From: a virus
Taxonomy: Duplodnaviria > Caudoviricetes
IMG/VR virus record: IMGVR_UViG_3300038549_000020
Coordinates: 1-62,819 of that record
Direction: 5' to 3' (one strand)
DNA length: 62,819 nucleotides
The position numbers and the translations under genes are program-made. A model generated the notes under the pieces. The model was not told where the DNA came from, made no database searches, and saw nothing but the letters and a program-made list of their open reading frames with translations. How positions within the stretch are numbered: position 1 is the stretch's first letter; each line of letters starts with the position of its first letter. This document shows, piece by piece, positions 10,657 through 56,547 of the stretch.

Positions 10657-12074
10657 CAGGCGGTGAAGTCGTGTGGTTCCATGGTGCCGTCGTCAAGCAT
10701 CCTGTCCGGAATGACGCCAATGGCCTCCTGGAGGCGACGACAGATTAGGTCACAGTATGCGGGGCTGATCTCGCATCCGTAGCCGATGCGCTGCTCTTGG
10801 TGTGCCGCTAGGAGGGTTGTTCCTGAGCCTGCGAAGGGGTCGAGTACTGCATCGGTGGGGTCGGTGTACGCACGGATGAACCAGGCCGGCAGTGCGACGG
10901 GGAAGGCCGCTGAGTGTGTTCCGTCGCCCCCGGCCGGGATCTTGATCACATTGCTTGGCCTTGCCAGCCCAGCTCCGTAATTCCTGGCTCCTGCCGGTGC
11001 GTAGCCACCTTCGCGCATGTCCATGTGTGCGTCTGGGCTGTAGCGGAGCACGTCTTCGCTCACGTGCCCGTTGGCGAGCGGGTTGAACCTGATCGGCGCC
11101 GACGCGGCGAAGTGGAAAACGGGCTCCCACGCGTCCTTGAACCGGTTCGGAAAGGAGCCGGGGAACCCGTTGGAGGCGTCAACCCAGCAAAGCTCATCGA
11201 CGAACCGCCATCCCCACCTGCGTACGTGGGCGATCGTCAGGTCTTTGACGTACAGGTGCCGCTGACCGTCCTCGCAATGCTCCTTGATGTTGACGAACCA
11301 TGATCCATCGCTGGCCAGGACTGCTCTGACGTTGGCCTGAATCTCCTCGAACCAGTCGACATAGCCATCCGGCGGTATCGGAGTGAAGCCGCTCGACTCA
11401 TCGTATGTGCGCTGCGACGCGTACGGCGGGCTTGTGAAGGCGAGGTTGACCCTGACCCCATCCATCAGGCGCTCGATCACGTCGAAGTCGCGACAGTCCC
11501 CACAGATGAGCCTGTGGCGTCCGATCCTCCACAAGTCGCCCCGCTTGCTGACTGGATCCGCTGGCGGAGACGGTGGCGCCGCCGGTCCGTCGTCGAGTGC
11601 GGGCGGGAGTTCGGTCACCTCGCCTTCGCCGAGGAGTTCGGCCAGATCGTCATCGCTGAATCCGGTCAGGTGCGCCAGTTCGGCGTCAACCTCGGCGATG
11701 GAACCCACCAGGGCGGCCAGCTCCCCGGCGTCCCATCCGCCGAGTTCGGTGTATCGGTTGTCAGCGACCAGGTATGCGTCCGCCTCGGCGTCCGACCGTG
11801 ACGCCCAGCCGCAGACGACCGGGACCATCCACTCGTCGCCCTGGACCTGGATGCCGGCGGGCGGAGACTGTCCGGACTCCCGTAGCGCCGTGAGCGCCTC
11901 GAGGCGGCCATGCCCGGCGACCAGTCGTCCGGTGCGCTCGTCGAGCAGGGCTGGCTGCGTGAAGCCGAATCGGCCGATGGATCGGCGTACGCCGTCGATG
12001 TCGTGGCGCTTGGGGTTGCTGGTGGCCGAGAGGATGGCCGACAGTGGGCGGTATTCGATGCGTCGGTCGCTCAT
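10656..12074 (-). CDS. ParB-N domain plus beta-class DNA N4-C/N6-A methyltransferase
   Basis: NPKRHD...LVAGHGRL (ParB); FTSPPY; LDPFAGSGTT; start MSDRRIEY overlaps the terS stop. Confidence 0.9.
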   Translation of the reverse strand: MSDRRIEYRPLSAILSATSNPKRHDIDGVRRSIGRFGFTQPALLDERTGRLVAGHGRLEALTALRESGQSPPAGIQVQGDEWMVPVVCGWASRSDAEADAYLVADNRYTELGGWDAGELAALVGSIAEVDAELAHLTGFSDDDLAELLGEGEVTELPPALDDGPAAPPSPPADPVSKRGDLWRIGRHRLICGDCRDFDVIERLMDGVRVNLAFTSPPYASQRTYDESSGFTPIPPDGYVDWFEEIQANVRAVLASDGSWFVNIKEHCEDGQRHLYVKDLTIAHVRRWGWRFVDELCWVDASNGFPGSFPNRFKDAWEPVFHFAASAPIRFNPLANGHVSEDVLRYSPDAHMDMREGGYAPAGARNYGAGLARPSNVIKIPAGGDGTHSAAFPVALPAWFIRAYTDPTDAVLDPFAGSGTTLLAAHQEQRIGYGCEISPAYCDLICRRLQEAIGVIPDRMLDDGTMEPHDFTA

Positions 12075-12565
12075 CGCAGTTTCTCCATGTCGACGCCGTC
12101 GACGGTGTAGCGGACGGTAACGCCACCACTGATGTCGGTCTTGACGGGTTCGTTGAGGCCGAACAGGAGTGCCCGTTGCCGGCTGATGGCGGTCAGGACC
12201 TTGATGGCCGAGAGGATGGGGCCGTCGTCGACGAGTGGGACGTCTCTTCCTGCGTCGGGATCTGGGATGGTGACGATTTCTCCACTGGAGACGACGTAAT
12301 GACGGCGGGCCATGACGGCGAGGGCGACGCGTTCGAGTCGATCGAGCTTGTCTGACTCGATCATGCGTCGGAGGTCGACGGCTACGGCTGGCCGCTCCGC
12401 GTTGGCCTTCTTGAGCTGCTGGCTGACGGCGGCTTGCGTTATGCCGTAGTGCTCGGCGATCTGTTGCTGTGAGTGACCGTTGACGATCATGCGCATCATT
12501 TCGGCGCGTCGTTCGGCCATAAGCGCACGCTGCCGTGATCTTGACGTTTTGTCCTGATCTGTCAC
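12071..12565 (-). CDS. Putative terminase small subunit (N-terminal HTH)
   Basis: GHSQQQIAEHYGITQAAVSQ HTH, RALLFGLNEP; upstream of the MTase and terL. Confidence 0.7.
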   Translation of the reverse strand: MTDQDKTSRSRQRALMAERRAEMMRMIVNGHSQQQIAEHYGITQAAVSQQLKKANAERPAVAVDLRRMIESDKLDRLERVALAVMARRHYVVSSGEIVTIPDPDAGRDVPLVDDGPILSAIKVLTAISRQRALLFGLNEPVKTDISGGVTVRYTVDGVDMEKLR

Positions 12566-12758
12566 GGCACCCCGCCTTATATAAGCGCCCTGTATAAGGC
12601 TGCGTATAAGGTGGATCATAGGCCGTCATGATCGCCAGACGCCACGCCGCGCGTAAGATAATGACGGTTATCCAACGCGATCGGTTACGCTCCGAAACGC
12701 CGGCGGCTACTGTCCGACGACGTGAGCAGGGCCGATCCGGGGCCGTTATGGTGACGGG

Positions 12759-14619: not shown

Positions 14620-14690
14620 TGTGTCTGGATGGATTCGAACCACCAACCTCCGGCGCGAAGACCGTCGCTCTGCCGTTGAGCTACAGACAT
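14620..14690 (-). tRNA. Atypical tRNA-Arg(TCG)-like gene with a 6-nt anticodon loop
   Basis: ATGTCTG-TA-GCTC AACGGCA GAGC-G-ACGGT CTTCGC GCCGG-AGGTT-GGTGG TTCGAAT CCATC-CAGACAC-A. Confidence 0.65.
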
Positions 14691-14939: not shown

Positions 14940-15013
14940 TGGCGAGGACGGGATTTGAACCCGTGACCTCTGGGTTATGGGCCCAGCGAGCTACCGAGCT
15001 GCTCTACCTCGCG
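14940..15013 (-). tRNA. tRNA-fMet(CAT) with C33
   Basis: CGCGAGG acceptor with 1:72 mismatch; three G-C anticodon-stem pairs; loop CCCATAA; TTCAAAT T-loop. Confidence 0.88.
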
Positions 15014-28814: not shown

Positions 28815-29032
28815 CCACCACCCTTGAGGATTCCCTGGCAGACGTGGCAGTAGTCGACGTCGCGGTTCGGGTACGGGCAGTCGGGGTGATGGCCCCGGAT
28901 GCCGTGCCGGATCGGCGCCGAGGTGAGGGGGCGCAGTGGGATGACCTCGGCCAGGCGTCCGGGTTCGCGGACCGCCGCGGCGGGCTCCTCGCCCCAGTCC
29001 TCCGGCCAGATGCGGCGTGCGGCGAGACTCAC
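28808..29032 (-). CDS. Small Zn-binding protein
   Basis: HHPDC...CHVC. Confidence 0.45.
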   Translation of the reverse strand: MSLAARRIWPEDWGEEPAAAVREPGRLAEVIPLRPLTSAPIRHGIRGHHPDCPYPNRDVDYCHVCQGILKGGGC

Positions 29033-30018
29033 GACTCGACCACCCTCAAGAGCGCACCGACAGGAGCGGGCTCGCAGCTTGGGGCCGGACCCTTCCCGGC
29101 GAGGAATGCCCTCAGCGCGCTCCTGGCGGCTTTGGCCTGCTCGGGGGTGACCGGTGGTGCCTGCTCGGCGCCTTCGTCCTCCTCGCGCATTTTCGCGGCG
29201 AGGAGAGCCCTGCGCTCGGTCGCCTTCGTCGCTCGCTGGCGGTCTTCGCGGACCTCGGCGAGAACCGCGGCGAGGTCGCCCTGGCGATGCATGGTCCGGA
29301 TGTAGCCGCCCGGATTGGTGGGACGGTGACGGGTCATGATCTTTTCAATGACGAAGTCTGCCTCATCATCATCAGCTCCGGTCAGAGTCGTCACGAGGCG
29401 GACGTCTCGCGCATCCGCGTGCGCGCGTTGATGATGATCCTTTCCCTGTTCCCTGATCCCTGATCCTTGATCAGGGGGGAGGATTTCGTGAGTCCTCCGG
29501 AGGATTTCCGGAGTGGTGTGGGCATATGTGTTTGCGCAGGCCAGCTGTGGTGGAGGCTGATTTTCGTGGTTGGTGGGTGGTGGAGACTCCTGCCGACCGC
29601 CGGAATCCTCTGGAGGTCTCCGGAGACTCTCCGGAGGATTTCCGGAGGACTCTGGAGGGTCGTCCTGGGGGTGTCCGTCGGGCGCGTCCGGCGGTGCCGG
29701 GATGCGGCTCTTCGACGGGTGGCTCACCTTCTGGTGCTCGGCCCATCCGGTGACCGCGAGGTAGGTTCTCCTGCCCGCCCGGTAGCGGACGATGAGACCC
29801 GCCTCGGCCAGCTCGGCGAGGTCCTCCTCAACATCGGAGGCGACCCGGTCATCCAGCGGCCAGAGGGCGGCCTTGACGAGCCGGGCGTCGTCGACACAGC
29901 GCCCGTAGTCGTCGACATGGGTCCACAGGCCCACGAACGTCAGCCGCGTCTCAATGCGCAGGCTGGCGACCGTGAGGCTCGTGAAGAACTCAGGCTTGAT
30001 CGTTCGAATGCGCGCCAT
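29029..30018 (-). CDS. Replication initiator/replisome organizer
   Basis: MARIRTIKPEFF...DDYGR...W.EHQK. Confidence 0.85.
   Translation of the reverse strand: MARIRTIKPEFFTSLTVASLRIETRLTFVGLWTHVDDYGRCVDDARLVKAALWPLDDRVASDVEEDLAELAEAGLIVRYRAGRRTYLAVTGWAEHQKVSHPSKSRIPAPPDAPDGHPQDDPPESSGNPPESLRRPPEDSGGRQESPPPTNHENQPPPQLACANTYAHTTPEILRRTHEILPPDQGSGIREQGKDHHQRAHADARDVRLVTTLTGADDDEADFVIEKIMTRHRPTNPGGYIRTMHRQGDLAAVLAEVREDRQRATKATERRALLAAKMREEDEGAEQAPPVTPEQAKAARSALRAFLAGKGPAPSCEPAPVGALLRVVES
29495..29647. repeat. Iteron-like repeats inside the rep gene (putative origin)
   Basis: CTCCGGAGGATTTCCGGAG exact at 29495 and 29629, plus CTCTGGAGG/CTCCGGAG variants. Confidence 0.6.
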
Positions 30019-30327
30019 CAGACATCCCCCGCCAGGGCGATGGATGACGTGGAAACGGCACGCTCCGTACGAGCGTGCCGGCGGTCTGGCATCATGAGAG
30101 CCAGGTCCTCTCCGGTGTGGTCGGATGAGGGCATCAGGCCGGTGAAGCGCGCCAACGCTTTGCCGGCCGCCCTGTTTGTCGCCCTGATCATACCTCGTGG
30201 GCTCATATTCCCCGTGCTCACTCGGGCCATGTCGCCACCCATTGATTCGAAGTGACATTCGCATTCATGTACAGCAATCCTCGAAAGCCTCCGACCCAAT
30301 CGAGCCGGAGGCTTTCCTCAACAGCAA

Positions 30328-30612
30328 TCAGTTCTCGTCGATCCCAGCGGCACTGAGCAGGGCTTTGAGCCTGGCAACCTCGTCCAGGATGGTCGGACAA
30401 GGAAAGACGACGTCGCTGAATTCCTGATACCGCTGCCCGGTCATCGGATTGACGTGCTCACTGAAGAGATCACCACCGAGAGTGGCATCGGAGACAATGT
30501 CCCGAGCGTCATCCTCATCGTAAAGACCAGCCTCGGCGGAATGGGGAGTAAAGCCCTGCTGATCGGGCCGCCACCACATGCCGTGCTCGTTTGACCAGAT
30601 CATGACTTTCAT
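30328..30612 (-). CDS. Hypothetical protein, tandem paralog A
   Basis: IWSNEHGMWWRP...EAGLY. Confidence 0.7.
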   Translation of the reverse strand: MKVMIWSNEHGMWWRPDQQGFTPHSAEAGLYDEDDARDIVSDATLGGDLFSEHVNPMTGQRYQEFSDVVFPCPTILDEVARLKALLSAAGIDEN

Positions 30613-31031
30613 GACGCACCTCCATGATCAGAAGGCTGCTGGTGGGCCCCCATCTCCGTCAGGCAAGCAAGGGCCTCAGTCAATTGGCCGCGCACCTCGG
30701 CCAGCTCGGAGCGCATCCGGTTGTACTGCCGCTCCACGGCCCGCGCGTGTTCCCCAATCTGGCGCTGCAACCCCACCTCGCGCGCCAGATACTCGACGTC
30801 GGCCATGACCTCGGGCGCCGGAATGATCACCTCGTCGACCTCCCGGTACCTCATGCCGCTGACCGGATCGACGCGATCATGGGTGAGCTCGCCGTCGCAG
30901 GTGGCCTTCGCCACGATCCGTTGGGCTTCATTGAGCCCGTACTTCCCCGCCTCGGACAGGTGAGCGGTGTAGCCGCGCTCGTTCGGACGCCACCACTTGC
31001 CATGCTGGTTCGACCAGATCAGGACCCACAT
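30609..31031 (-). CDS. Hypothetical protein, tandem paralog B with coiled coil
   Basis: IWSNQHGKWWRP...EAGKY. Confidence 0.7.
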   Translation of the reverse strand: MWVLIWSNQHGKWWRPNERGYTAHLSEAGKYGLNEAQRIVAKATCDGELTHDRVDPVSGMRYREVDEVIIPAPEVMADVEYLAREVGLQRQIGEHARAVERQYNRMRSELAEVRGQLTEALACLTEMGAHQQPSDHGGAS

Positions 31032-31381
31032 GAGACGGCCTCCTCGTACAAGTCGGACGAGTAGACCTTGGCCCGCTCACGCCCGTCGGTGATCTTCTCC
31101 GCCCAGTAGTCCGGGTTGATCCGCGCGAGGTTCCAACCCGCGCTTGGTCGGAAGAACTCGAACATGTTCGGCAGGCGGCGGAACGTGAACCCGTCGCGAT
31201 TTCCCCCGATGTGCAGGTGACCGGGCCAGGTGATGACGTCGAAGTGGCCGATCTCCGTGTTCGGCCGCTGGCACCGCAGGTGCCGGTACAGCCCGTCGTC
31301 GTGGAGGATCGTCAGCTGGTGCTCGGCGACGTCGCGGTCGAAGGTGGTCTTCAGGTAGTCGGGATAGGTGGGCCGAGTCAT
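31019..31381 (-). CDS. Conserved phage protein, possibly C-terminally truncated
   Basis: DDGLYRHLR...ITWPG.L...MFEFFR...INPDYWAEK. Confidence 0.65.
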   Translation of the reverse strand: MTRPTYPDYLKTTFDRDVAEHQLTILHDDGLYRHLRCQRPNTEIGHFDVITWPGHLHIGGNRDGFTFRRLPNMFEFFRPSAGWNLARINPDYWAEKITDGRERAKVYSSDLYEEAVSCGS

Positions 31382-31977
31382 GCCGCCACCTCCCGCTCCG
31401 CGTCGCAGCGATGCCCTGCGACCTGGTCGCACAGCTCTGACCACTTGGTGGCTGACGGGCCGAGGATGCCGGACGTCCGGACCGCAAGAGCCTCATCAGT
31501 CTTGGCGCACGCGACAGTGACGGTTGCGCCGTACTCATCCACGCTCACCAGCACTGTCGGATCGCACACGGCCACCATCTGCGGCCAGTCGGCCCGGGCG
31601 TGCCCGTGGGCCGCTGACTCCTCCTGCTCCGGCGTGAGCGGCCTGAGCGGGTACGCCTTCGGCTTCCATCCGGCGGCCCGCAGCTGTCGCGCGTCAGCCT
31701 CGGCAAGGTCGGCGCGGCGCTCCTGGACGCGACACTGACGGATAGCCTCAGCGGCGGCCTCGTGGGCGCGGACAGCCTCCGCGCGGGCCTCGGCCACCAG
31801 TGCGGCGGAGGCCTCCCGCTCACGCTGGATCGCGGGATTGGCCATCACTGCGGCACGGGTTTCGATCAGGTGTTCTATGTTTCTGGTCGTGTCGGCCAGG
31901 TTCGCGGCGATCTCGCGTACCGCATCGAGTGGATCGACCACAGTGGTCGACTGATCTATCGATTCATTCATGATCAT
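31378..31977 (-). CDS. Coiled-coil hypothetical protein
   Basis: Ala/Glu/Arg heptads. Confidence 0.55.
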   Translation of the reverse strand: MIMNESIDQSTTVVDPLDAVREIAANLADTTRNIEHLIETRAAVMANPAIQREREASAALVAEARAEAVRAHEAAAEAIRQCRVQERRADLAEADARQLRAAGWKPKAYPLRPLTPEQEESAAHGHARADWPQMVAVCDPTVLVSVDEYGATVTVACAKTDEALAVRTSGILGPSATKWSELCDQVAGHRCDAEREVAA

Positions 31978-31994
31978 TTCCTCAGGATTTCTGG

Positions 31995-32282
31995 TCACGA
32001 CGCACCACTGCGCCGGGACCTGCGATGGCGTGCGGCATACGGACAGGTGGCGAAATGCGACCGGTACACGGCCCGCGCACCAAACAGGTCGGCGGGATTC
32101 GACACGACCTGGGCCAGCGGCCCGGCTGGACTGGAGGTCAGCAGGACGTTGCCGCCCCCGTGGTTGACGTCCACCGGCTCGGCGTCCACCGGCATGCGCC
32201 GACCGGACGCCCGTACGGTCGCCCAGATGATCGGGGCCTGGCAGGAGGTGCACCGACTCGTCGGATAGTCGGGTTGGGTCAT
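31995..32282 (-). CDS. Zn-finger protein
   Basis: CTSCQAPIIW...MPVD...SHFATCP. Confidence 0.7.
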   Translation of the reverse strand: MTQPDYPTSRCTSCQAPIIWATVRASGRRMPVDAEPVDVNHGGGNVLLTSSPAGPLAQVVSNPADLFGARAVYRSHFATCPYAARHRRSRRSGAS

Positions 32283-32286
32283 CGGG

Positions 32287-32520
32287 TCACCCCCGGCCCA
32301 CGAGGTTGAGAGCCTGGGTGACGGCGGCGTGCACGTCGGTGGTGGTGCGGCGAGACTCCCGCTCGGCCTTCAGTTGGCGCTCCAGGGTCGCGATCCGCTC
32401 AGCCCTAACCTCGGACCGCCGCTGAGTGACCGTGTACAGGGCGACGGCCACGGTCGCCAGGGCGCTCATGGTCGCGGCGACCAGGGCCAGGCCGATCTCG
32501 ACCGCGAGGTGGTCGCTCAT
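32287..32520 (-). CDS. Small TM plus coiled-coil protein
   Basis: ATGA coupling to the GGDEF gene. Confidence 0.55.
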   Translation of the reverse strand: MSDHLAVEIGLALVAATMSALATVAVALYTVTQRRSEVRAERIATLERQLKAERESRRTTTDVHAAVTQALNLVGRG

Positions 32521-33536
32521 GCCGCCACCTCCCGCCCGTACTGGCATCCGGGGCAGTCGACCCCGTCACCGAGGCATTCACACGGCGGGGCGTCCCGCAC
32601 CGTGCGCCGGATCTCCTCGGCAACCGGGGGCGGCATAACCCGGCGACCATCGGAGGGTAGGGAGGCGGGATCTCTGCGCCGCTGGGCCTTGGCGCAGTAC
32701 ATCCCGCGATCGGCCACCATCAAGGCATCACGCAGGGTGGTTGAGGGTCTGACGGGGGCAACGCCAACCGAGGCGGACACCTCCACGACCACCCCGCAGG
32801 TGAGCATGATTGGCGGCCCCAGGAGGGCATCCACGGACTTCGCCGCGACCATCGGGACGCCCTCGACCACGAGCGCGAACTCATCGCCACCGAGCCGTAC
32901 GGCGGCGAGGCACCCCTGCGTCAGGGGGAGCCTGACGGCCACGGCCCGCAGGACCTCGTCACCGGCGGCGTGACCGTATGTGTCGTTGACGACCTTGAAC
33001 CAGTCCAGGTCGACCAGGAGCAGCCCGGTCGCCTCGGCCAGCGGCCAGCGTGTCGTCAGCCACCGCCGGTTGGGGAGTCCGGTCAGATCGTCTCGATACG
33101 CCAGACGCTCGGCGTCCTGGCGCAGGAGACGCTCGATCGCGAGCGTCTCCTCGGCGGCCAGGGCGGCATGCTCTGCTGCGGCCAGCTGGGCCCGCACCAG
33201 GCGCAGGTCGTCATGTGCGGCCGTCAGGGCGTCCTCGGCCCCAACGAGAGCGACGACCAGATCCGCCCGATCGGTGGCGCCCAGCTCCGCCAGTGCGTCC
33301 CGCAGCTGCTCATCCAGCGCGGAGGCGGGAATGGCCGGGGCTGGCAGATTGGCCCATGCCAGCCCCGGCCCGTCCGGCCGTGGCGGGAGGTCGCCACCAC
33401 AGCCGGATGCACCAGCGTCACGGCGCCGGTGCGGATCCCCGGGAGGCATAGGGGAACACCCCCCCGGGGTTGGTGTGGCCCGCCGGCCGGGCCCTCCCTC
33501 CTGGCCGGCGGGAGATGTGGAGGCGTGCGCTGTCAT
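32517..33536 (-). CDS. GGDEF diguanylate cyclase with N-terminal coiled coil
   Basis: AYRDDLTGLPNRR, VDLDWFKVVNDTYGHAAGDEVL, RLGGDEF, SASVG, ADRGMYCAK. Confidence 0.92.
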   Translation of the reverse strand: MTAHASTSPAGQEGGPGRRATPTPGGCSPMPPGDPHRRRDAGASGCGGDLPPRPDGPGLAWANLPAPAIPASALDEQLRDALAELGATDRADLVVALVGAEDALTAAHDDLRLVRAQLAAAEHAALAAEETLAIERLLRQDAERLAYRDDLTGLPNRRWLTTRWPLAEATGLLLVDLDWFKVVNDTYGHAAGDEVLRAVAVRLPLTQGCLAAVRLGGDEFALVVEGVPMVAAKSVDALLGPPIMLTCGVVVEVSASVGVAPVRPSTTLRDALMVADRGMYCAKAQRRRDPASLPSDGRRVMPPPVAEEIRRTVRDAPPCECLGDGVDCPGCQYGREVAA

Positions 33537-34495
33537 GACGCATCGCCTGGCGTGGTGATCGGCGAGCCATCCGGCCAGCAACGCCGACAGCCGAAGGTCG
33601 CGCCGTGGTCGCGGGCGGCCTGGGCTGCGGTCATCCGGATACCTGTGCGCATGGACCGCCCACAGGCGGTCAGCGCAGCGCCAGGTCTGCCGAAGGTGGC
33701 GTCCGGATCCCGCCCGTCGGTGGGGCGGTGTGCGGCGATCCCCTTGCGGGTGGTGGCGATCCACGCTGGATCGAACCAACCCGACCCCTCCAGGCCGGAG
33801 GGGTCGGCAGTGATCGCAACCCATCCGCGCACTTCGACGACCATGTCAAGCACGTTGGAGTGTCCGGCAGCCCAGCCGGTGCGGTAGTGATCATGCGGAC
33901 TGGAGCTGCGCACCTTGCTGTATACGTGCGGCCCGATGTCGAGGGCCCGCGCCCAGTCTGCGATGTACTCCGGCCGGTCGGTCTCGACCCGGATCTTGAC
34001 CTCGTCGCTGTAGTACCCCACTTCGATCTCCATCGGTGACGACAGCCCGTCGCCGACTAGGCGGGCAATGACGCCCCAGATGCCGCGGGCGGGGCTGGCG
34101 GGAGACTGCTGATCGGCGTCCGGGGATGCGGCACCCCTGGCGGCCGCACCCCCGGACGTGGCGGACCCATCCGGGACCTGGTCCGCCCTCTCCCCGACAG
34201 GTGGGGGAGTCTGATCGGCGGACGGTGACGGGGATGTGACACCGTCCGCCGAGTCTGTGCTGGCCGGGCCGTAGGCGACGACCATGTCGCCCTCGATGAC
34301 GACCGTGGCGGCATTGATGTACTTGCTCGTCGCGAGCAGCCGCTCGACACGGTCGCGGGTGTTCTCGACCGTGTCATCGCCCAGGGTGCCAATGAGGCAC
34401 CGCTCGGCGTCCGTGACGACCCACCGAGGCGGGTCGTAGATGTCGTTGCGGATCGCCGTGGCGACGGCGCCGAGGCCGGGAGGTGGGGAGGCCAT
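33533..34495 (-). CDS. Multi-domain hypothetical protein with C-terminal Zn finger
   Basis: H...TACGRS...CRRC. Confidence 0.55.
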   Translation of the reverse strand: MASPPPGLGAVATAIRNDIYDPPRWVVTDAERCLIGTLGDDTVENTRDRVERLLATSKYINAATVVIEGDMVVAYGPASTDSADGVTSPSPSADQTPPPVGERADQVPDGSATSGGAAARGAASPDADQQSPASPARGIWGVIARLVGDGLSSPMEIEVGYYSDEVKIRVETDRPEYIADWARALDIGPHVYSKVRSSSPHDHYRTGWAAGHSNVLDMVVEVRGWVAITADPSGLEGSGWFDPAWIATTRKGIAAHRPTDGRDPDATFGRPGAALTACGRSMRTGIRMTAAQAARDHGATFGCRRCWPDGSPITTPGDAS

Positions 34496-35322
34496 CACAT
34501 GCCCTCGATTCGTCCCGAGATGAAACCGAAGTCGGCCTTGATGTCGCCGATCGGGGCCACGGTGGAGGTGCTCCACCGGTAGGTGATGGGGTCCTGGATC
34601 TCTCGGCGCACGACCGGGCCGCCGATGAGGTCCGCGAGGCGGCGGGTGGCCGCCAGGGAGGCGTCCTCGTCGGCCTCCCAGTCGCTCTCGTCGTCGACGT
34701 ACACAGAGGTGCTGCCCCCGACCCGGACGGCCCCGACCTGCGGCGCCTCGGGCCTCTCCAGGAGATCCGCCAGGCGACGCAGGCCTGCGGCAACGCCCGC
34801 GTTGGGGTGGACGCTCGCGGCTGGGTACACGGTGACGCTGGCGTTGGTCCCATCGGAGGAGATGTCAATGACGACCTCGCCGGTCGGCGTGCCCTCACCG
34901 ACCAGCTGCGACACCAACTGGGCCGCGACCGCGTTGGTGTCGTGGATGGGGCGCTCGATGATGCCGATGCGCTGGCCGGCGGGTGCCTCGACATCCCAGG
35001 CGCCACGGGCCGGAGCCCACAGCGCGACAGCCAGCGGCGTGCCGAGGGTCCACCGGTTGAGAGCGGCCGCGATGGTGCAGGCCTGCTCCCACCGGGCCAG
35101 CAGGTCATCCTCGTCCTCGAAGTCGCCGGAAATATCGGACCAGTAGAGGAGCGTGTCCCTGGAGGGGGTCTCTCCGTAGGGGTGCTCCCCGCGCACGACG
35201 GAGATCTCGACATCGACGGTCTCGTCCACCCCGGCAGGGGTGGGGTACCCCTGCCCTGATGTGTCCGTGCAGATTGCCCGCCAGGGGCCGTGCGTGGCGT
35301 CCCTGGCTTGAGTGGGATTCAT
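34495..35322 (-). CDS. Hypothetical protein
   Basis: GGAGG RBS; acidic. Confidence 0.55.
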   Translation of the reverse strand: MNPTQARDATHGPWRAICTDTSGQGYPTPAGVDETVDVEISVVRGEHPYGETPSRDTLLYWSDISGDFEDEDDLLARWEQACTIAAALNRWTLGTPLAVALWAPARGAWDVEAPAGQRIGIIERPIHDTNAVAAQLVSQLVGEGTPTGEVVIDISSDGTNASVTVYPAASVHPNAGVAAGLRRLADLLERPEAPQVGAVRVGGSTSVYVDDESDWEADEDASLAATRRLADLIGGPVVRREIQDPITYRWSTSTVAPIGDIKADFGFISGRIEGM

Positions 35323-35449
35323 TCCGTATCCTCCTAGGTGCTTGTTTCGTTGTTCGGCATCTCGCCAGGCGCCCCCGTTGACGCGCGGGGGCGCTTTGCT
35401 GTCGGGTCCGGCCTGGGTGGATCGCTCCCATCCCAAGCCGGACCGACGT

Positions 35450-35686
35450 CTATGCGGCGGCCGAGAGTGGCTGTGCGATGAGGTCGCGTGGGTCGACGCC
35501 CAGCTCGTGCGCGATCGCTTCGAGATCGCTCAGGCTGATTTCGGCCTTGCCATTGATGCGCACGGTCAGGTACTTGACCGTCCAGCCGAGACGCCTGGCC
35601 AGCTCGGTGGCCCTGAGCGGCGGATCCTGGCGCGCCATTTCGACCCTGATGCCGACTCTGGCCAGCTGTACCAAGGTGTGTTCCAT
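35450..35686 (-). CDS. Cro-like XRE regulator
   Basis: IRVEMARQ...ATELARRLG...DLEAIA; divergent from the repressor. Confidence 0.8.
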   Translation of the reverse strand: MEHTLVQLARVGIRVEMARQDPPLRATELARRLGWTVKYLTVRINGKAEISLSDLEAIAHELGVDPRDLIAQPLSAAA

Positions 35687-35828
35687 GCATCTAGTTTCTT
35701 GCCTAGCGGGGAAGACGTCAACCCGTGACAGTAAGCTCATGTCATGGCAAGAAAATTTCGCACCTCATCGGGATGTGCGTCTCACGTAGGGGGTTGCGTA
35801 CAGCCCGGTCATGGAAGACTCTTGCGGT
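35687..35828. promoter_or_regulatory. Lysis/lysogeny switch region
   Basis: Intergenic between divergent XRE genes; imperfect inverted repeat CCGTGACA...TGTCATGG. Confidence 0.55.
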
Positions 35829-36248
35829 ATGGGCACGCAGGGAACCGCTACGGCAACCACGCTCCAGGCGAGGGTCGCCACTGAGATCCGCGTCGAGCTG
35901 GCCAGGCAGAACATCAGGGCGTCTGAGCTGGCGAGACGACTGAACGAGGCGGACAAGTGGGTGAGTATTCGCCTGCGGGGGCTGACGCCGATCACACTGA
36001 CTGACCTGGAGCGGATCGGCAAGGCTCTCAGGGTGGATCCGGCCGCCCTGCTACCCCGTGGCCGCCCAAACGGGTCGATCGAGAAATACCATGATCTCGC
36101 CAGCGAGCCAAATGGCGATGAGATCGCACCGATTGGACGACCACGGTCGGGCACCGGTCGTTACGGCGGCCCTGAAGGGGATCGCCGCCCCCGACCGATA
36201 ACACAGTCCGTGTACCCACTGTCACGAGCGGTTCCCGTAGCCGCATAG
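35811..36248 (+). CDS. CI-like immunity repressor (XRE) with disordered tail ending VPVAA
   Basis: IRVELARQNI.ASELARRL...DLERIGKAL; alternative start at 35829. Confidence 0.8.
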   Translation: MEDSCGMGTQGTATATTLQARVATEIRVELARQNIRASELARRLNEADKWVSIRLRGLTPITLTDLERIGKALRVDPAALLPRGRPNGSIEKYHDLASEPNGDEIAPIGRPRSGTGRYGGPEGDRRPRPITQSVYPLSRAVPVAA

Positions 36249-36254
36249 TCGGGC

Positions 36255-37085
36255 ATGGGACTCATCGAGGAGTATCTTGACGAACTTCGGAGCATGGGCC
36301 GCTCCGAAGAGACCATCCGTTACACCCGGACCACCCTCCACCAGGCTGACCGCGCCGACCAGTTCGAACTCGGCCTATGCCTGGCCAGTCGCAACGAAGT
36401 TCAGGCATGGCTCAGACGCCCCACACGCGGGGGGAAGCGACTCGCCCCCAATACCCTCGCGAACAACTTCGACCGGTTGCGCGGATTCTTTCGCTGGGCC
36501 CATGGCCAGGGAAAACTTGATTGGGATCCGATGGCGTCCCTCACCCCACCAGGCAGACCGAAGGGCGTGCCGCGACCGGTCACCGATGACCAACTGGCGC
36601 TGATCGTCGCCAGCGTGCGGCACGCGATCCGGATCGCCGCGCTCCTGGCCGCGTGGGAGGGCATGCGCGCCGGAGAGATCGCCCGCATCGATCGAGAGGA
36701 CATCACCCCGGGTGGGGTGATCGTCTACGGCAAGGGTGGTCGTCAGCGGGTCGTGCCCACCCATCCGCTCGTGGCGGCCGAGGTGGCATCTCTCGCCCCC
36801 GGCAATCTCATGGCCCAGCTGGGAGTGCGGCCCGCAGCTCAGGCCGTGACATCCACCAGTGGGTATGAGTTCGGCAAGCTGGGCCTGGACGTCACCTTGC
36901 ACCAGTTGCGGCACTGGTTCGCCACGACATTGATCAACGCTGGGTGGTCGACCAGGGTCGTGCAGGTCCTCCTCGGGCACGCCTCGGTGGCGACCACGGA
37001 GGTGTACACCGAGGTTGCCGGCCACAATCTCGGCCAGGCCGTGGCGGGCCTGCCCAGTCTTGGACTGGACGGACCCGCCACATGA
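36255..37085 (+). CDS. int: Tyrosine integrase lacking an arm-binding domain
   Basis: GMRAGE, GKGGRQR, HQLRHWFAT, LLGHAS..TTEVYT. Confidence 0.92.
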   Translation: MGLIEEYLDELRSMGRSEETIRYTRTTLHQADRADQFELGLCLASRNEVQAWLRRPTRGGKRLAPNTLANNFDRLRGFFRWAHGQGKLDWDPMASLTPPGRPKGVPRPVTDDQLALIVASVRHAIRIAALLAAWEGMRAGEIARIDREDITPGGVIVYGKGGRQRVVPTHPLVAAEVASLAPGNLMAQLGVRPAAQAVTSTSGYEFGKLGLDVTLHQLRHWFATTLINAGWSTRVVQVLLGHASVATTEVYTEVAGHNLGQAVAGLPSLGLDGPAT

Positions 37086-37088
37086 TGA

Positions 37089-37505
37089 TCATCTATTGGG
37101 TTGGTGTCCGGGTCGCTGGGGTCGCATCCCCAGCAGCTCGGCCGCCGCTGTCTGGTCGAGGTGGCCGGCGTGCAGGAGTCGCCGCACCATCTCGGTCAGG
37201 TGTCCGTGATGGTGCGGCCGCGCATGTTCACGCTGCCGCAGCACGTGGACCACCCCGCCGGCCGCCGTGACAGCGGCGGTCAGGGCGTCGTCGTCGAGGG
37301 CGGTGATGACCGCCTCGGCGAGGTTGTGACGGATGAGGGCGGCGGCCGCGCGTGGATCCCACGCGTAGGCCACGACCTCGGCGTCGGGGTGATGGCGCAG
37401 GACTGCCGCCGTGAGGCGGTGACGGGACTGATGATCGTCGCGGGTAGACGGTGGCATGTGGAGGATCGCTCTCATGCCGTGATCAACGACCGGATAGTTA
37501 GGCAT
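37089..37505 (-). CDS. Hypothetical protein
   Basis: Natural composition. Confidence 0.5.
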   Translation of the reverse strand: MPNYPVVDHGMRAILHMPPSTRDDHQSRHRLTAAVLRHHPDAEVVAYAWDPRAAAALIRHNLAEAVITALDDDALTAAVTAAGGVVHVLRQREHARPHHHGHLTEMVRRLLHAGHLDQTAAAELLGMRPQRPGHQPNR

Positions 37506-37548
37506 GCGAACATTTACGTTCGCGGTGGTACGGCCTACGGGGTCGTAC

Positions 37549-37918
37549 TCACGGGTAGCCTGCGGTCCGACACGCGGTCACCAGCGCCAACAGCTGATCC
37601 AACGAAGACAGCGACGCCGACGCCTCGGCATCGGTCATACGGGCAGCGTTCGCGTCGATCACGGCCCGCTCCAGACTCTGGCCAGCGGCGGACACGACAG
37701 GGATGGTCGACGCTGCGGCATCATCGCCGATCTTCGTCAGCGTCGCCAGCAGCCAGTCACGGTCCCCGACGACCAGCGGGATCGGGATCAACGGAGACGG
37801 ATGGATTGGGTGTCCACTGTGGCAGCGACGGCGCAGCGGTCGCGGACGATCCGGACGACGAACATCCGGCGACGCACAGAGCCGCCAGGGAGGCGGCGAG
37901 GAGGGAGAGTCGTGTCAT
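37549..37918 (-). pseudogene. Lipoprotein split by an apparent 1-nt frameshift
   Basis: Lipobox VAGC after a signal peptide; coding-like frame resumes after GATCCC-GATCCC at about 37777-37788. Confidence 0.5.
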
Positions 37919-37958
37919 GCGGGCAGCGTGACCCCTCAGGGCGAGCAGGACACCACAG

Positions 37959-38231
37959 TCACCCGTCCGAGGGACGAGTACGGCGGCGCCCAGTCTGCTT
38001 GCCAGCCGCGATCTGGGCGGCGGTCTCCCGTGCCACGCCGAAAACCTCGCCGACATCGGCATGGGAGAGGCCTGCGGATCGCAGCCCCAACACAATCTCG
38101 CGTCGGAGTTTGACCGCCTCCCGGTGGGTCTCCGTGAGGTCGCGGAGGAGCTTGGCGATTGCCCGGCCGCGCTCCTCCAGGTCCGGGATGGCCTCAATCC
38201 GGGCAATGGCAGCCATCAATGCGTCCCTCAC
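37959..38231 (-). CDS. Coiled-coil plus HTH regulator divergent from the transfer module
   Basis: GLSHADVGEVFGVARETAAQI. Confidence 0.7.
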   Translation of the reverse strand: MRDALMAAIARIEAIPDLEERGRAIAKLLRDLTETHREAVKLRREIVLGLRSAGLSHADVGEVFGVARETAAQIAAGKQTGRRRTRPSDG

Positions 38232-38690: not shown

Positions 38691-40115
38691 ATGATGACCA
38701 CTGACACCGCCACGGCCGGCGCCGTCGATCGCCTCGCCGGTCTCGTCGGCGCCACCGAAGGCGACCGACGGGCACGCCGACGTCTCCTCGATCGCGCTTC
38801 CCGCGTCCTGGCGGCTGACGCCGAGGCGGAGCGGCGGGCACGGTTCGCGATCGCCGAGGCCGAGCAGCGGGCGAAGGCGGTCGAGGCTGACGCCGAGGCG
38901 CGCATCCGGGCCGCCGAGGCACGGCTGCATGTGCAGCAGCGTGAGCGGGAGGCCAGCCGGGCGGAGCGGGAGGCGCAGCGCGCAGCGGACGCCGCAGCAC
39001 GCGAGGACCGCGCCGAGCGCGCAGCGCTGCGCAGCGCCCGCTACGCAGCGGCGCGTGACGCGTGCGGCGCGGCGGCACCAGCAGTGCTGTCCATGCTCGT
39101 CTACGGCGCAGCGGTCGCATCCGCCGTCTTCGGACAGGTCACCGTCGCCACCGGCCGCTACGCCTGGCCGATGTGGCGCGGACTGCTGCTTGCGGCATTC
39201 ATCGAACTCATGGCCCTGGCCATGGCCCTGACCGCCAACCGGCTACGGCTGCGCGGGGAGCGCGCCTTCGCCCCCCGGGTGCTCACGTGGGTGTTCGCGA
39301 GCTTCGCAGCGGCCGTCAACGTGTGGGGGCACTGGACAGACCCGCTCATGGCGGCGGGGCTGGGAGCGGCCTCGCTCGGCGGCATCACGCTGTGGGAGAT
39401 CCGGTCGTCGGCGCGGCACCGGGATGCGCTGCGCGCAGCGGGTCAGCTGGCGGAGCCCATGCCGCGGTTGGGGTGGCGGATGTGGGTGCTGCGCCCGCGC
39501 ATTGCTGCGGGTGCGTACCGGTTGGCGGTGCGCGCTGCGGTGTCCGATGCCGCTGCGCCACTCATCGCCGAGGCCGAGGCGCAGCGGGTGCTGCGACGCT
39601 CCGCGCGGGTGCTGCGCGGCGGCAAGGGTGCTGCGGCGGCGCTTCCCGCTGCGCTCGCAGCATCAGAGGTCGCAGAGGGTGCAGCGGGTGCTGCGGACGC
39701 CGATCTGTGGGCGGAGATCGACGCCCGCGACCCGTGGGCCGCAGCGGTGCGGCGCGACGACGACAGCGTGCAGCGGAGCGTCGCAGCATCCGCAGCGCTG
39801 CACCCGCAGCAGCTCCGCGCAGCACCGCGCCGGGGAGGGCGCAGCGCGGCGACCGTCCATCCGCTGCGTCCTGTCCGCAGCGCGCAGCGCAGCACCGCGC
39901 AGCGTGGCGCGGCACTGACCGACGACCAGATCGCAGCGGCCATCCGTGACGCCGTCGCAGCGGCGCGGCGAGGCGAGGCTGAGATGCCGTCGCAGCGGGA
40001 GCTGATCCGGATCGTCGCCACGCAGCACCCGACGGCCCCGGTCGTCGGGCCGCGGCGCATCGACCGGATCGCAGCGGAGATCGCAGCACCCATGTTCGCT
40101 GGTGTGGCGTCATGA
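38691..40115 (+). CDS. SpdB/DUF2637-like multi-pass membrane protein (coiled coil, 4 TM, C-terminal HTH-like)
   Basis: AAAVNVWGH, PRLG.RMWVLRP, MPSQREL. Confidence 0.7.
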   Translation: MMTTDTATAGAVDRLAGLVGATEGDRRARRRLLDRASRVLAADAEAERRARFAIAEAEQRAKAVEADAEARIRAAEARLHVQQREREASRAEREAQRAADAAAREDRAERAALRSARYAAARDACGAAAPAVLSMLVYGAAVASAVFGQVTVATGRYAWPMWRGLLLAAFIELMALAMALTANRLRLRGERAFAPRVLTWVFASFAAAVNVWGHWTDPLMAAGLGAASLGGITLWEIRSSARHRDALRAAGQLAEPMPRLGWRMWVLRPRIAAGAYRLAVRAAVSDAAAPLIAEAEAQRVLRRSARVLRGGKGAAAALPAALAASEVAEGAAGAADADLWAEIDARDPWAAAVRRDDDSVQRSVAASAALHPQQLRAAPRRGGRSAATVHPLRPVRSAQRSTAQRGAALTDDQIAAAIRDAVAAARRGEAEMPSQRELIRIVATQHPTAPVVGPRRIDRIAAEIAAPMFAGVAS

Positions 40116-41449: not shown

Positions 41450-43546
41450 ATGGATCACCGGGGTCGTATCCCAGTCATCGCGACAGTGGGCTGCCTGGCC
41501 GCACTCGGGGCGGCCTTGGTGGTCCGGACCGTGCCCGGCATCCCCTGGTGGGCGCCGGGTGCGGCTGGCGCCATCCTCGGCGCCTTTGCCGGCATCGTCT
41601 GCCTGGCCACCCTCATACCCCTGGCCACGGGCCTGCACCGGGTGGTGTGTGTGGCGGCCGTGGGCGCCTGGGCGTCCTGGGCGTCCTGGCACGGCATGAC
41701 ACCCCTGGATGTGGTGTGGCTGCTGCTGGCTGCCGCTGTGCTGGCACTCCTGGCGGTGGCGCTGCCGACCGTGGGTGAGACGGTCGGCCCCGAGGTGGCG
41801 CCCCGCGACCGGCGGCCGGATGAGGTGCGCGCCCTGGAGGACCTGCTACGGCGGCTGACCAAGCAGCCGACGATCAGCGTCAGCAGGATCGACCCGTGGG
41901 AGCGGCCAAAGGACGGACTTCGCGCCCACGTCGACCTACCCGAGGGCATGACCATCAAGGACCTGGCCGGCTACTGCGACCGGATCGCATCATCACCGGT
42001 GCTGCGGTTGCCGCAGGGCTGCGCCGTGCGGGCGCTGGACGGCGCCTACCAGTGCGAGGCGGTCCTGGACATCATGACCAGGGACTGCCTGGCTGACACG
42101 GTCGTGATCGACGAGCCGGCGACCCCGGCATCGGTCAGGGACGAATTCACTGTCGTGTGCTCACCGAGGGGTGAGCGGCTATCGATCTGCCTGCGGATCA
42201 TGTCCATGGTGGTTGGTGGCACTATCGGATCGGGCAAGACGACCTTGTTGCACCGGATCATCATGTGGCTTGCACGCTGCACGGACGCCCTGGTGTGGAT
42301 CATCGACATGAACGGTGGCGGGCTGGGTGCGCCCTGGGCGCAGCCCTACCTCGACGGCAAGACCGATCGGCCGACCGTCGACTGGATCGCAGACTGTGAG
42401 GAGGAGGCTGCGCTCATGACCGCGGTTGCCAAGGCCGTGCTCATCGACCGCAAGACTTCGCCGCAGGCCAGGGCCGCCCGGCGTGCGGCCAACACCAATG
42501 TGATGCCCGTCAGTGCCGACCTCCCGGCGATCATCATCATCGCCGACGAGGGTGGAGAGATCCGCCAGACCATCACCCTCCTCGGCCGACTCGCGGGCGA
42601 ACGGATCTCCTCGATCGCCCAGATCGGCCGGGAGACCGCCGGCCGGGTCGTGCTGTCCGTCCTCCGCGGTACGTCTGACCTGCTGGACAAGGGCTTCCGA
42701 GCGGTCGCGGGGCTCCGGTTGTGCCTGCGGATGGACGAAGAGGGGGAAGCCGACCACATCCTCGGCCGCAACCCTGGGCGTACCCCGCTGCTGCACGTCG
42801 GCTCGGCCTGGCTGTACCGATCCGGCACCGACTATCGGCCCATCCTCGGCCGAACGGTCGACATCCCTCCGGACGCCATCGAGCGGCACGCGCTGGCCAC
42901 CGCACGCCTTCGCCCCCAGTTGGACGAGCGTGGACAGCTCATCGCTTCCCAGGTCGATGCGGTCGCCGTCCTTGGTGGCATCAGGCCGGACAACATCCGG
43001 CACCTGCTCAGCCTGCCTCCGCTGGCCGATGCGGCGGCGGGCCACGCGTACAGCATGCGGTGGCGCCGGTATCGGGACCGGCTGGCGGCCCGCGACGGCA
43101 CCGGACCGGTCGAGCCGATCCGCCCAGCCGACTCACCCACGGTCGCCCCGGCGGGCAGCAGCATGGAGCGACTGCTCATGGCGACCGGGGTCACAGGTCA
43201 GGACGGGCCGGAGCCAGGAGCCACACCCGAGCAGATACAGAGGGCGGCCCTCGACGCCGTAGCGGTCGGTGACGAGTTCGCGGCGCTCACCTCAGCCGAG
43301 CATTTCGTCCGCGACGCCCAGGAGCCGCGGCCCGTCAGCGTCCCGGCCAGGGTCGAGCCCATCACAGGACGAGAGATGATCCTGGCCGTCCTGCAGGACG
43401 CCCACCCCGACGGGCTCACGGCCGGGCAGATCGAGACTCAGCTACGAGAGCGCGGCACACCATTGAGCCGTGGGCGGCTTTATGAGCTGCTGAGGGACAT
43501 GCAGTTGCCGAGGGATGGACAGCAGTACCTGTACCCTGAGCGCTGA
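41450..43546 (+). CDS. TraB-like FtsK/SpoIIIE DNA translocase
   Basis: N-terminal TMs, Walker A GTIGSGKT, WIIDMNGG, Walker B IIIIADE, C-terminal winged helix. Confidence 0.85.
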   Translation: MDHRGRIPVIATVGCLAALGAALVVRTVPGIPWWAPGAAGAILGAFAGIVCLATLIPLATGLHRVVCVAAVGAWASWASWHGMTPLDVVWLLLAAAVLALLAVALPTVGETVGPEVAPRDRRPDEVRALEDLLRRLTKQPTISVSRIDPWERPKDGLRAHVDLPEGMTIKDLAGYCDRIASSPVLRLPQGCAVRALDGAYQCEAVLDIMTRDCLADTVVIDEPATPASVRDEFTVVCSPRGERLSICLRIMSMVVGGTIGSGKTTLLHRIIMWLARCTDALVWIIDMNGGGLGAPWAQPYLDGKTDRPTVDWIADCEEEAALMTAVAKAVLIDRKTSPQARAARRAANTNVMPVSADLPAIIIIADEGGEIRQTITLLGRLAGERISSIAQIGRETAGRVVLSVLRGTSDLLDKGFRAVAGLRLCLRMDEEGEADHILGRNPGRTPLLHVGSAWLYRSGTDYRPILGRTVDIPPDAIERHALATARLRPQLDERGQLIASQVDAVAVLGGIRPDNIRHLLSLPPLADAAAGHAYSMRWRRYRDRLAARDGTGPVEPIRPADSPTVAPAGSSMERLLMATGVTGQDGPEPGATPEQIQRAALDAVAVGDEFAALTSAEHFVRDAQEPRPVSVPARVEPITGREMILAVLQDAHPDGLTAGQIETQLRERGTPLSRGRLYELLRDMQLPRDGQQYLYPER

Positions 43547-52166: not shown

Positions 52167-52412
52167 TCACTCGCCAGGCCGAATGATCGCCACCGCCAGG
52201 GCCGCCAGCGACACCAACGCCGCCAACGCCGGTAGTGGCCACCGGCCGCGCTCCAGGTCCCGCATGCGCCCCTCGTGGTCACGTACCTCGGCGCGGGTCT
52301 CCGCGTACTGCTCGACCAGGCGCCCAACCGTGGCCTCCAGGCGCACAAGGGCGTCGTAGATCTCGCGGGCCCCGATGCGGACATCCATTGGCTGCTCGTC
52401 GCGGCGGACCAC
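52167..52412 (-). CDS. Coiled-coil plus TM lysis-associated protein
   Basis: DHEGRMRDLE..RW followed by a TM. Confidence 0.6.
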   Translation of the reverse strand: MVRRDEQPMDVRIGAREIYDALVRLEATVGRLVEQYAETRAEVRDHEGRMRDLERGRWPLPALAALVSLAALAVAIIRPGE

Positions 52413-56038: not shown

Positions 56039-56547
56039 CACTCAGCCCAGCGGATCCAACACCGCATGTCCACCCCGGACGTCGGAGTGGTCGCCCGGAC
56101 GCGGACGAACTTGCTAACCGGAATGATCGGCCGCGAGTCGGGCATCCACTGATAGGAGTAGTGCGAGGGTGATTCGCTGGTGGTCATCGACAGCGCCACC
56201 ACATCGAAGACCCGTGTCGCCGTGGTGTTGTCCTCGGCGGAGGAGGTGTAGCCGGTGGCCTCCGTGCCCAGGGTGAGCAGAGACGCGGGTGCGCCAGGGT
56301 CGGTGGGCTGCACCCCTGCGGCCACATGCGCGGTGACGGTGGCGGCCACATCGGTTTGCAGCAGCTCCACCACACCATCGGCACCTGGGATGTCGTCGAC
56401 GGTGAATCCCCATGCGATCAGGGTGATCTGCCTGGTCGACGGGGTCGCCAGCTGCAACATGGTCTTGATCGATGTCCCGGTGGTGACGGCGGCCTGGGCT
56501 GCCGTGGTCGGCATCGGTCCGTTCCAGGCCGTATAGATGTGCGGCAC
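56038..56547 (-). CDS. Minor virion protein
   Basis: Beta-rich; in the tail operon. Confidence 0.6.
   Translation of the reverse strand: MPHIYTAWNGPMPTTAAQAAVTTGTSIKTMLQLATPSTRQITLIAWGFTVDDIPGADGVVELLQTDVAATVTAHVAAGVQPTDPGAPASLLTLGTEATGYTSSAEDNTTATRVFDVVALSMTTSESPSHYSYQWMPDSRPIIPVSKFVRVRATTPTSGVDMRCWIRWAE

Follow-up and report, generated by a model that had tools for sequence, protein, structure and literature searches.

The DNA analysed here, called the window below, is the whole of IMG/VR virus record IMGVR_UViG_3300038549_000020 (62,819 bp). On its minus strand, among genes of a phage, it carries a gene for a predicted stand-alone GGDEF diguanylate cyclase, the type of enzyme that makes cyclic di-GMP (c-di-GMP). 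The features of this gene and of its 339-residue product (P0001) are as follows.

32517-33536, minus strand: the cyclase gene, matched by Pfam and TIGR00254
33096-33269, minus strand: N-terminal stalk helix (residues 90-147), leading straight into the GGDEF domain
32676-33101, minus strand: GGDEF catalytic domain (residues 146-287)
33063-33092, minus strand: DDLTGLPNRR motif (residues 149-158)
32958-33011, minus strand: DLDWFKVVNDTYGHAAGD motif (residues 176-193)
32907-32918, minus strand: QGCL (residues 207-210) in place of the RxxD inhibitory site
32877-32897, minus strand: RLGGDEF motif (residues 214-220)
32877-32891, minus strand: GGDEF active-site pentapeptide (residues 216-220)
32592-32630, minus strand: C-terminal tail motif P-x6-RR-x-x-RD (here IRRTVRDA; residues 303-315), conserved in the family
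32544-32582, minus strand: CxC-x6-CxxC cysteine cluster (residues 319-331), in a low-confidence part of the model

An earlier note, made from the letters of the window, had placed a complete GGDEF signature in the open reading frame (ORF) at 32517-33536, and each of its motifs was found there; the interval that it gave for the core motif, 32877-32891, is exactly the GGDEF pentapeptide. Its other observations on the protein were largely confirmed: QGCL replaces RxxD five residues upstream of GGDEF, no sensor domain is recognisable, and the coiled coil said to precede the domain appears in an AlphaFold model as one 58-residue helix (residues 90-147; predicted local distance difference test, pLDDT, 81-98), with a hydrophobic residue at 12 of the 14 a/d positions in its best heptad register. 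The C-terminal CxC...CxxC motif that it reported is present (CEC at 32574-32582 and CPGC at 32544-32555), but is private to the window copy, is not conserved in relatives and does not stand as a family feature. The start of the gene is ambiguous: the ATG at 33536 shares an ATGA with the stop codon of the ORF before it, no stop interrupts the frame as far as 33824, and a database gene call begins at Met30 (P0002, 310 residues). Residues 1-60 are rich in Pro, Gly and Arg and are disordered in the AlphaFold model.

The catalytic domain was recognised by Pfam GGDEF (PF00990; E 5e-23, 82.1 bits against a cut-off of 23.8), by TIGR00254 (96.1 bits against 37.4) and by the NCBIfam SiaD model, which scores 75.9 bits. 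A HMMER alignment to PleD placed D176/D178, K181, N184, D193, R214, G216-F220, K283 and R287 of the cyclase at functional positions, the PleD counterparts of which we take to be D327, K332, N335, D344, R366, GGEEF (E370/E371), K442 and R446. The residues aligned to those that bind metal and phosphate in PleD are D176, K181, R214, D218/E219, K283 and R287, and the guanine-specific Asn and Asp are present as N184 and D193. In an alignment of five family members the aligned catalytic residues are invariant except for G216 and R287. Serine or threonine at the position of the guanine-specific Asp is presumably the mark of the Hypr synthases of cyclic GMP-AMP (cGAMP); the window cyclase has Asp193 at this specificity position, and a Hypr assignment was rejected. 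The domain was modelled by AlphaFold with a pLDDT of 96-98, and Foldseek returned 96 matches in the PDB at E <= 0.001 for the model, those listed all being cyclases and the top ones being SiaD, PleD, WspR, DgcB and other cyclases (E 4e-14 to 1e-9). Judged by these alignments, the protein carries every residue expected of an active c-di-GMP synthase, and it is probably enzymatically active.

The stalk was examined by co-folding two copies of residues 66-339, which gave a score of 0.53 against 0.00 for the best control; of the proteins solved as one-chain pairs 20 of 30 came up to this mark, and of those solved as single chains 1 of 23. The runs agreed in at least 48% of contacts, with a partner pLDDT of at least 76, and the confident interface covered residues 97-147, in which residue i touches residue i at a spacing of 3-4, so that the modelled arrangement is a parallel, in-register coiled coil. 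Because the model was built from our own alignment and stalk-cyclase dimers (SiaD, DgcB and GCN4-WspR) have already been solved, the result speaks for likeness to these dimers rather than for binding. In the model, the stalk would form a parallel dimeric coiled coil that brings the two GGDEF domains together.

The gene lies beside an immunity and integrase region, where the following neighbours were found.

36255-37085, plus strand: tyrosine integrase, divergent from the operon
35811-36248, plus strand: repressor-like protein (PHROG 'transcriptional repressor', phrog_4583), divergent from the operon
35450-35740, minus strand: Cro-like helix-turn-helix (HTH_3) protein, first gene of the leftward operon
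34495-35436, minus strand: ORF_A, 313 residues, second gene of the operon, in no Pfam or PHROG family
33533-34498, minus strand: ORF_B, 321 residues, in no Pfam or PHROG family, its stop overlapping the cyclase start
32287-32520, minus strand: small protein with an N-terminal hydrophobic helix, in no Pfam or PHROG family, its start overlapping the cyclase stop (ATGA)
31995-32282, minus strand: Cys-rich phage protein (phrog_5984), after a 4-bp gap
29029-30264, minus strand: replication initiator
41450-43546, plus strand: FtsK/SpoIIIE-like protein (phrog_31069), divergent from the cyclase

The cyclase is the fourth gene of a leftward operon headed by the Cro-like gene. ORF_A comes after a short gap, ORF_A, ORF_B, the cyclase and the small ORF are chained by ATGA/GTGA stop-start overlaps, and replication genes lie further downstream. 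The placement in a Cro-led early operon claimed by the earlier note thus agrees with the position of the gene, the HTH gene, the divergent repressor and integrase, and the overlaps. The presence of an integrase, a repressor and a Cro-like protein in one region indicates that the phage is temperate, and since an operon of this kind is expected to fire on infection or induction, we infer that the cyclase is made with the early genes at those times and not in a repressed prophage.

Relatives of the cyclase surfaced only in alignment-based scans; when IMG/VR was scanned with one protein at a time, namely the cyclase, the replication initiator or ORF_B, none appeared. A single-sequence search with the cyclase returned generic GGDEF domains only (best non-self match 107 bits, with 35% identity over 56% of the query; 4,766 of 8,000 scored candidates at E <= 0.001). 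The alignment-based scan of IMG/VR yielded at least 518 GGDEF stretches, many of them at contig ends as host flank would be. Inspection of 20 high-GC loci showed four that hold small stand-alone proteins with the peculiarities of the window protein, namely a helical N-terminus, a short alpha1 with RRW...W, no RxxD and the C-terminal P-x6-RR-x-x-RD. Tail residues P303, R310, R311, R314 and D315 are invariant in all five aligned members, and of the 82 distinct GGDEF ORFs in the viral loci four, all of them family proteins, have the strict RR..RD tail. An exhaustive profile search of 1.84 billion representatives produced 552,839 GGDEF matches; among the 150 matches listed, nine were small single-stretch proteins aligned out to or near the tail region, these being the window's own protein, those of loci L031, L056 and L100, and five new ones. 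With P0122, P0123 and a copy in a bacterial genome (L198/L204) the family comes to 12 members, for which the broader tail pattern is RR-x-x-R-[D/G].

Two of the members, P0238 and P0242, carry an extra N-terminal domain (ORF_X, LLAAASRALREAGW...) that in L056/L124 (L056 5264-5830) stands as an ORF of its own upstream of the cyclase and is absent from the window. The first GGDEF position is G in eight of the 12 members, H in three and A in one, and one member has GDEY. When all residues were tried at this position in Vibrio cholerae VCA0965, only A, G, H and M are reported to have kept cyclase activity (PMC3974145), and the spread of G, H and A would therefore favour catalysis across the family.

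Bacterial genomes and plasmids were also searched. In the 151 genomes of the family of a Micromonosporaceae metagenome-assembled genome (MAG), with 16 candidates scored per genome, 25 genomes had a match at E <= 1e-40, the best reaching 153 bits, which is in the generic range; the 10 best loci included one clear member (L198/L204, with an RRTVRD tail) and three proteins with a related ...VRVRD/...VRVRT tail. A second group of small GGDEF proteins, like P0149 and P0153, was seen in Micromonosporaceae genomes at L192, L195 and L196 (genomes G105, G019 and G151); these end in ...RP-x-VRVRD or ...VRVRT, which resembles the tail of the phage family. A plasmid collection gave only generic GGDEF matches, mostly proteobacterial. 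By the features of its sequence, the window cyclase is not a lone capture and probably belongs to a small clade of phage and prophage cyclases.

The surroundings of the relatives repeat those of the window. In L056/L124 and L100/L145 the gene order is the same, with integrase, repressor, cro, ORF_B homologue, cyclase and small membrane protein; the integrases are 37% and 43% identical to that of the window over 268 residues, and the ORF_B homologues 34% identical over 290 residues and 31% over 329 residues, respectively. L100 additionally has the phrog_5984 gene, which lies downstream of the cyclase in L100/L145 as well. ORF_B itself fell into neither a Pfam nor a PHROG family and had no usable match in the Atlas, a search of 5.8 billion proteins returned only itself, the L056 protein and one weak fragment match, and the alignment-based scan of IMG/VR gave no relatives of it beyond L056/L124 and L100/L145. 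In the prophage locus L126 an integrase and a repressor diverge from an early operon in which the cyclase lies, and a RuvC-like resolvase lies further downstream; this cyclase is the protein named by NCBI from Micromonospora sp. HM134. The prophage fragment L204, from a genome in the same GTDB family as a Micromonosporaceae MAG, has the cyclase (RRTVRDLA tail) followed by homologues of an L145 gene (54% over 259 residues) and of the window gene at 52167-52412. L111 shares the divergent FtsK/SpoIIIE-like gene (L111 155-2356, minus strand; 37% over 681 residues) and the cyclase, and no integrase was seen in it. The early-operon position beside the immunity and integrase region is thus held in the window, L124, L145 and L126. 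As the same arrangement is found in other viral contigs, the cyclase is, as the earlier note had it, a phage gene, and it is not host flank; since the relatives that have a named host are in Micromonospora or Micromonosporaceae, the known hosts of the family are Micromonosporaceae.

Two further neighbours came to light at these loci. The window gene at 38691-40115 (plus strand, 474 residues) has homologues that adjoin small GGDEF genes in two Micromonosporaceae genomes (L203 10593-11297, 37% over 241 residues; L206 8017-8460, 35% over 155 residues) and another in L124, and it may be a second gene that recurs next to these cyclases. In L202 a weak homologue of the window gene at 4374-5387 lies 5 kb from a small GGDEF gene.

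On balance, we favour the reading that the gene truly belongs to the phage and encodes a stand-alone GGDEF diguanylate cyclase, homodimeric and catalytically competent, that most likely serves to hold infected mycelium vegetative. The parallel 58-residue coiled coil would hold two chains together, and two GTP-loaded GGDEF domains placed side by side could then condense 2 GTP to c-di-GMP; with no RxxD site, there would be none for product inhibition. The cyclase gene would share a transcript with the early genes that follow the Cro-like gene, with coupled translation. No PilZ or EAL domain was found in the phage record, and Rfam gave two tRNAs only and no c-di-GMP riboswitch on it, so that the c-di-GMP would have to act on host receptors. 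BldD orthologues with a c-di-GMP binding motif presumably exist in Micromonosporaceae. BldD is reported to repress sporulation genes only when bound to c-di-GMP (PMC5499655, PMC5485038) and RsiG to sequester WhiG only with c-di-GMP, in systems described as widespread in Actinomycetota (PMC12871210). In sporulating actinomycetes high c-di-GMP would arm BldD and RsiG and block development, and the infected mycelium would be held vegetative and phage-permissive. In a study of Streptomyces venezuelae, development was found to contain the spread of phage, and early infection to bring repression of developmental genes (PMC10117723). That the cyclase keeps hyphae vegetative through this link to host development, which is drawn from the literature, is a tentative proposal with somewhat less than an even chance of being right. 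We are rather doubtful of its fuller form, in which a temperate actinophage clade would make its own c-di-GMP early to override the developmental escape of the host, with the tail either self-limiting the enzyme or docking a host effector.

If true, the proposal would provide a virus-encoded bacterial second-messenger synthase for host takeover, directed against sporulation and aerial growth at the infection front, in organisms (Streptomyces and relatives) whose choice between vegetative growth and sporulation is governed by c-di-GMP as master switch. An early-expressed phage cyclase would directly explain the early repression of developmental genes, the route of which is not given in that study (PMC10117723). 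A compact, sensor-less cyclase would also be a tool to raise c-di-GMP in actinomycetes, in which raised c-di-GMP is reported to change antibiotic titres (PMC7911125). Since Micromonospora sp. HM134, a named strain, has a relative in a prophage, there would be a cultured host for testing the idea, provided that the strain can be obtained.

Several observations weigh against this interpretation, and some of them lend support to others. The alpha1 helix with its loop is about 8 residues shorter than in most relatives and cyclases, and with four of the 12 members departing from the canonical glycine in first place and one carrying GDEY, selection may not have favoured synthesis in every member. 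The domain tree is a polytomy with two supported sub-clades in which P0001 and P0122 are unplaced; an approximately unbiased (AU) test of 11 members as one clade did not reject monophyly (p 0.926, the constrained tree being 43.8 log-likelihood units better than the free search), a test that only fails to reject a single clade, and the domain tree alone does not settle the family. The nearest terminases (60-66% identity) come from several actinomycete families (Nonomuraea, Streptomyces, Micromonosporaceae, Kribbellaceae and Prauserella) and from one Acidimicrobiaceae MAG. No RNA sequencing runs with this sequence are listed, the sole run being wetland metagenome DNA, which is probably its source. 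The position in a Cro-led operon may also be compatible with an internal promoter active in lysogens; a scan of 29000-37500, which was uninformative, gave no promoter-like site and one terminator-like site on the plus strand, and the lack of a minus-strand terminator-like site in that interval is weak evidence. Finally, the invariant tail residues, with the tail carried by further members, and the likeness to SiaD point to an enzyme that is active but regulated, being gated, or targeted to one host effector as in local signalling, by the tail, by a SiaC-like partner that binds the stalk or by the ORF_X domain. We take this possibility seriously, if with less than even confidence. SiaD, which has the same kind of architecture, is the top Foldseek match and the subject of the NCBIfam model noted above, is switched on by SiaC (7e6g was solved 'in complex with its activator SiaC'), and because this closest structural analogue needs an activator, the lack of a sensor cannot be read as constitutive activity. 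Three contigs keep ORF_B in its place upstream of the cyclase, and the domain fused in P0238 and P0242 corresponds to a separate upstream ORF in L056/L124. On the other hand, the tail has a pLDDT of 56-70 and lies outside the confident dimer interface, the window is without ORF_X, and ORF_B has no recognisable family. RxxD is lacking in the four relatives aligned with the cyclase and, more widely, in 23 of 52 aligned GG[DE]EF domains (the query among the 23), the other 29 having it; its absence is therefore ordinary and no proof of an uninhibited enzyme. For these reasons, namely the commonness of RxxD loss, the conserved tail, the activator of SiaD and the extra N-terminal domain in two relatives, the 'constitutive, uninhibited' cyclase of the earlier note is not established.

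The gene could instead serve lysogenic conversion, with a resident element altering host development, metabolism or surface (for instance to exclude other phages) outside the lytic cycle. GGDEF genes are drawn on the AICEs (integrative and conjugative elements of actinomycetes) pSE211, pSAM2, AICESco5349 and AICESare1562 (PMC2440964), S. venezuelae is reported to have a plasmid-borne, GGDEF-only pCdgG and to transcribe CdgD throughout its life cycle (PMC6205966), and the FtsK/SpoIIIE-like gene of the window is of a kind filed by PHROGs under morons. Yet the cyclase is locked by stop-start overlaps into a Cro-led operon that runs to replication genes, and it has the same operon position in four elements, and we consider conversion unlikely. 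It is more improbable still that the protein makes no c-di-GMP, as a degenerate nucleotide sensor or receptor, or as the source of another product such as cGAMP that interferes with nucleotide-based defence of the host. Such a role would fit the relatives with HGDEF, HGDEY and TAGDEF, the shortened alpha1, and the proposal of Iyer et al. that GGDEF domains carried by invasive elements may disturb nucleotide signals of the host (PMC5512222); against it, H and A at the first position are reported to keep c-di-GMP synthesis in VCA0965 (PMC3974145). The window copy has a canonical GGDEF, and its operon is without a PADLOC match; no PADLOC model matched the cyclase or six other scanned neighbours, apart from a weak mad8 match on the FtsK-like protein (E 3e-4). 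Asn184 and Asp193 are invariant in the family, the latter at the position that we take to be Ser/Thr in Hypr enzymes. Hardly credible is the idea that host DNA was wrongly joined to a viral contig, by prophage-boundary contamination or chimeric assembly. GGDEF matches in phage collections are indeed often host genes, as in the partial Escherichia coli prophage ON470592, in which the protein called 'diguanylate cyclase' is DgcN, encoded together with YfiB past the integrase, where the record ends, and many of the IMG/VR matches lie at contig ends. The cyclase of the window, however, is 2.2 kb inside an operon and 30 kb from either contig end, with phage genes on both sides and a third-position GC content (GC3) like that of its neighbours, and its arrangement recurs in independent viral contigs; host flank was rejected on the flanking genes and on this recurrence.

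Elsewhere in the record, which is classed as linear and has a CheckV completeness of 79%, the following features were identified.

3028-4377, minus strand: major capsid protein
5110-7971, minus strand: portal protein (phrog_2662/phrog_12 over residues 51-423)
9325-10656, minus strand: terminase large subunit
10656-12629, minus strand: fusion of a ParB-like nuclease domain and a DNA methyltransferase (657 residues), directly upstream of the terminase
14620-14690 and 14940-15013, minus strand: two tRNA genes (ARAGORN, Rfam)

Tail-region genes are also present. The portal protein has about 300 residues of collagen-like, Gly-rich repeats fused on, which match many 'tail fiber' PHROGs. One of the two tRNAs is a tRNA-Met; the other has no anticodon that ARAGORN could name ('tc' at position 33) and scores 50 bits with Rfam. 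The FtsK/SpoIIIE-like protein (phrog_31069) is of a kind that actinomycete elements use for conjugative DNA transfer. Both ends of the record (1-917 and 53828-62819) are inside the minus-strand block of structural genes, so that the record is either circularly permuted or broken within the virion module. Among named phages the closest are Thermobifida phage P1312, with a terminase 63% identical, and Streptomyces phage Dagobah, at 58.5% for the terminase and 46.6% for the capsid. Region 30000-38000 had no megablast match among phage records, and in the five genomes with the nearest terminases the GGDEF proteins are ordinary host ones only. At 71.4% GC the interval 32001-34000 is among the 2-kb stretches of the record that are richest in GC (67.4% for the record as a whole); the cyclase gene has a GC content of 72.2% and a GC3 of 0.80, against 0.80-0.91 in its neighbours, and these values give no signal either way as to a recent capture from a host.

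Compared with the canonical cyclases PleD, WspR and TpbB/YfiN, the window protein has the same fold and the same catalytic, metal-, phosphate- and guanine-binding residues, at a domain identity of 30-50%. It differs from them in lacking a receiver, PAS, GAF or membrane sensor and an RxxD site, and in its alpha1 (shorter by about 8 residues), its family-specific tail and its encoding by a phage. The nearest architecture is that of SiaD of Pseudomonas aeruginosa (7e6g), in which a coiled-coil helix likewise runs straight into a single GGDEF domain and which was the best structural match (E 4e-14, 227 aligned columns), and of DgcB of Caulobacter crescentus (6ttr; Foldseek rank 16), which has the same stalk-plus-GGDEF design; identity to these two is just 26-27%, and the tail motif is not described for either. 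No SiaC-like partner was found in the window, although no search was aimed at one. The Hypr cGAMP synthases share the GGDEF fold and differ where the window protein has D193 and they, by the rule as we understand it, have Ser/Thr.

Among phage proteins, 138 records of a phage collection match the cyclase, none of them covering 80% of the protein, and of the eleven organism names attached to these matches the ten listed include no actinomycete phage. The 'GGDEF domain proteins' of lytic Pseudomonas and Bordetella siphophages are likewise encoded by phage early genes and match residues 147-223 at 42-52% identity, but they (for example Bordetella phage CN1 APL99421.1) have 152 residues with the N-terminal half of the domain only and no stalk or tail, and belong to virulent phages of proteobacteria, unlike the temperate phage of the window. 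We know of no functional study of these siphophage proteins. Iyer et al. (PMC5512222) also noted GGDEF domains in polyvalent proteins from phages and from conjugative elements, and our searches of the open-access literature turned up no actinophage reported to encode a cyclase.

By published description, a close actinomycete counterpart is CdgD (SCO5345/vnz19760), which is also a stand-alone GGDEF protein without RxxD, in an operon with genes of unknown function. CdgD is reported to be an active cyclase, and overexpression of cyclases, CdgD among them, to arrest development (PMC7911125), and in S. venezuelae its operon is described as holding one such gene of unknown function (PMC6205966). From the gene numbers, we infer that SCO5345 is the GGDEF gene of AICESco5349. 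CdgD, pCdgG and the AICE genes were compared by description and not by sequence, and they are chromosomal, plasmid-borne or AICE-borne, unlike the phage early gene described here. Stand-alone GGDEF proteins on actinomycete plasmids and integrative elements are thus already known, and what is new at this locus is an ordinary enzyme in a conserved viral setting, together with a conserved tail.

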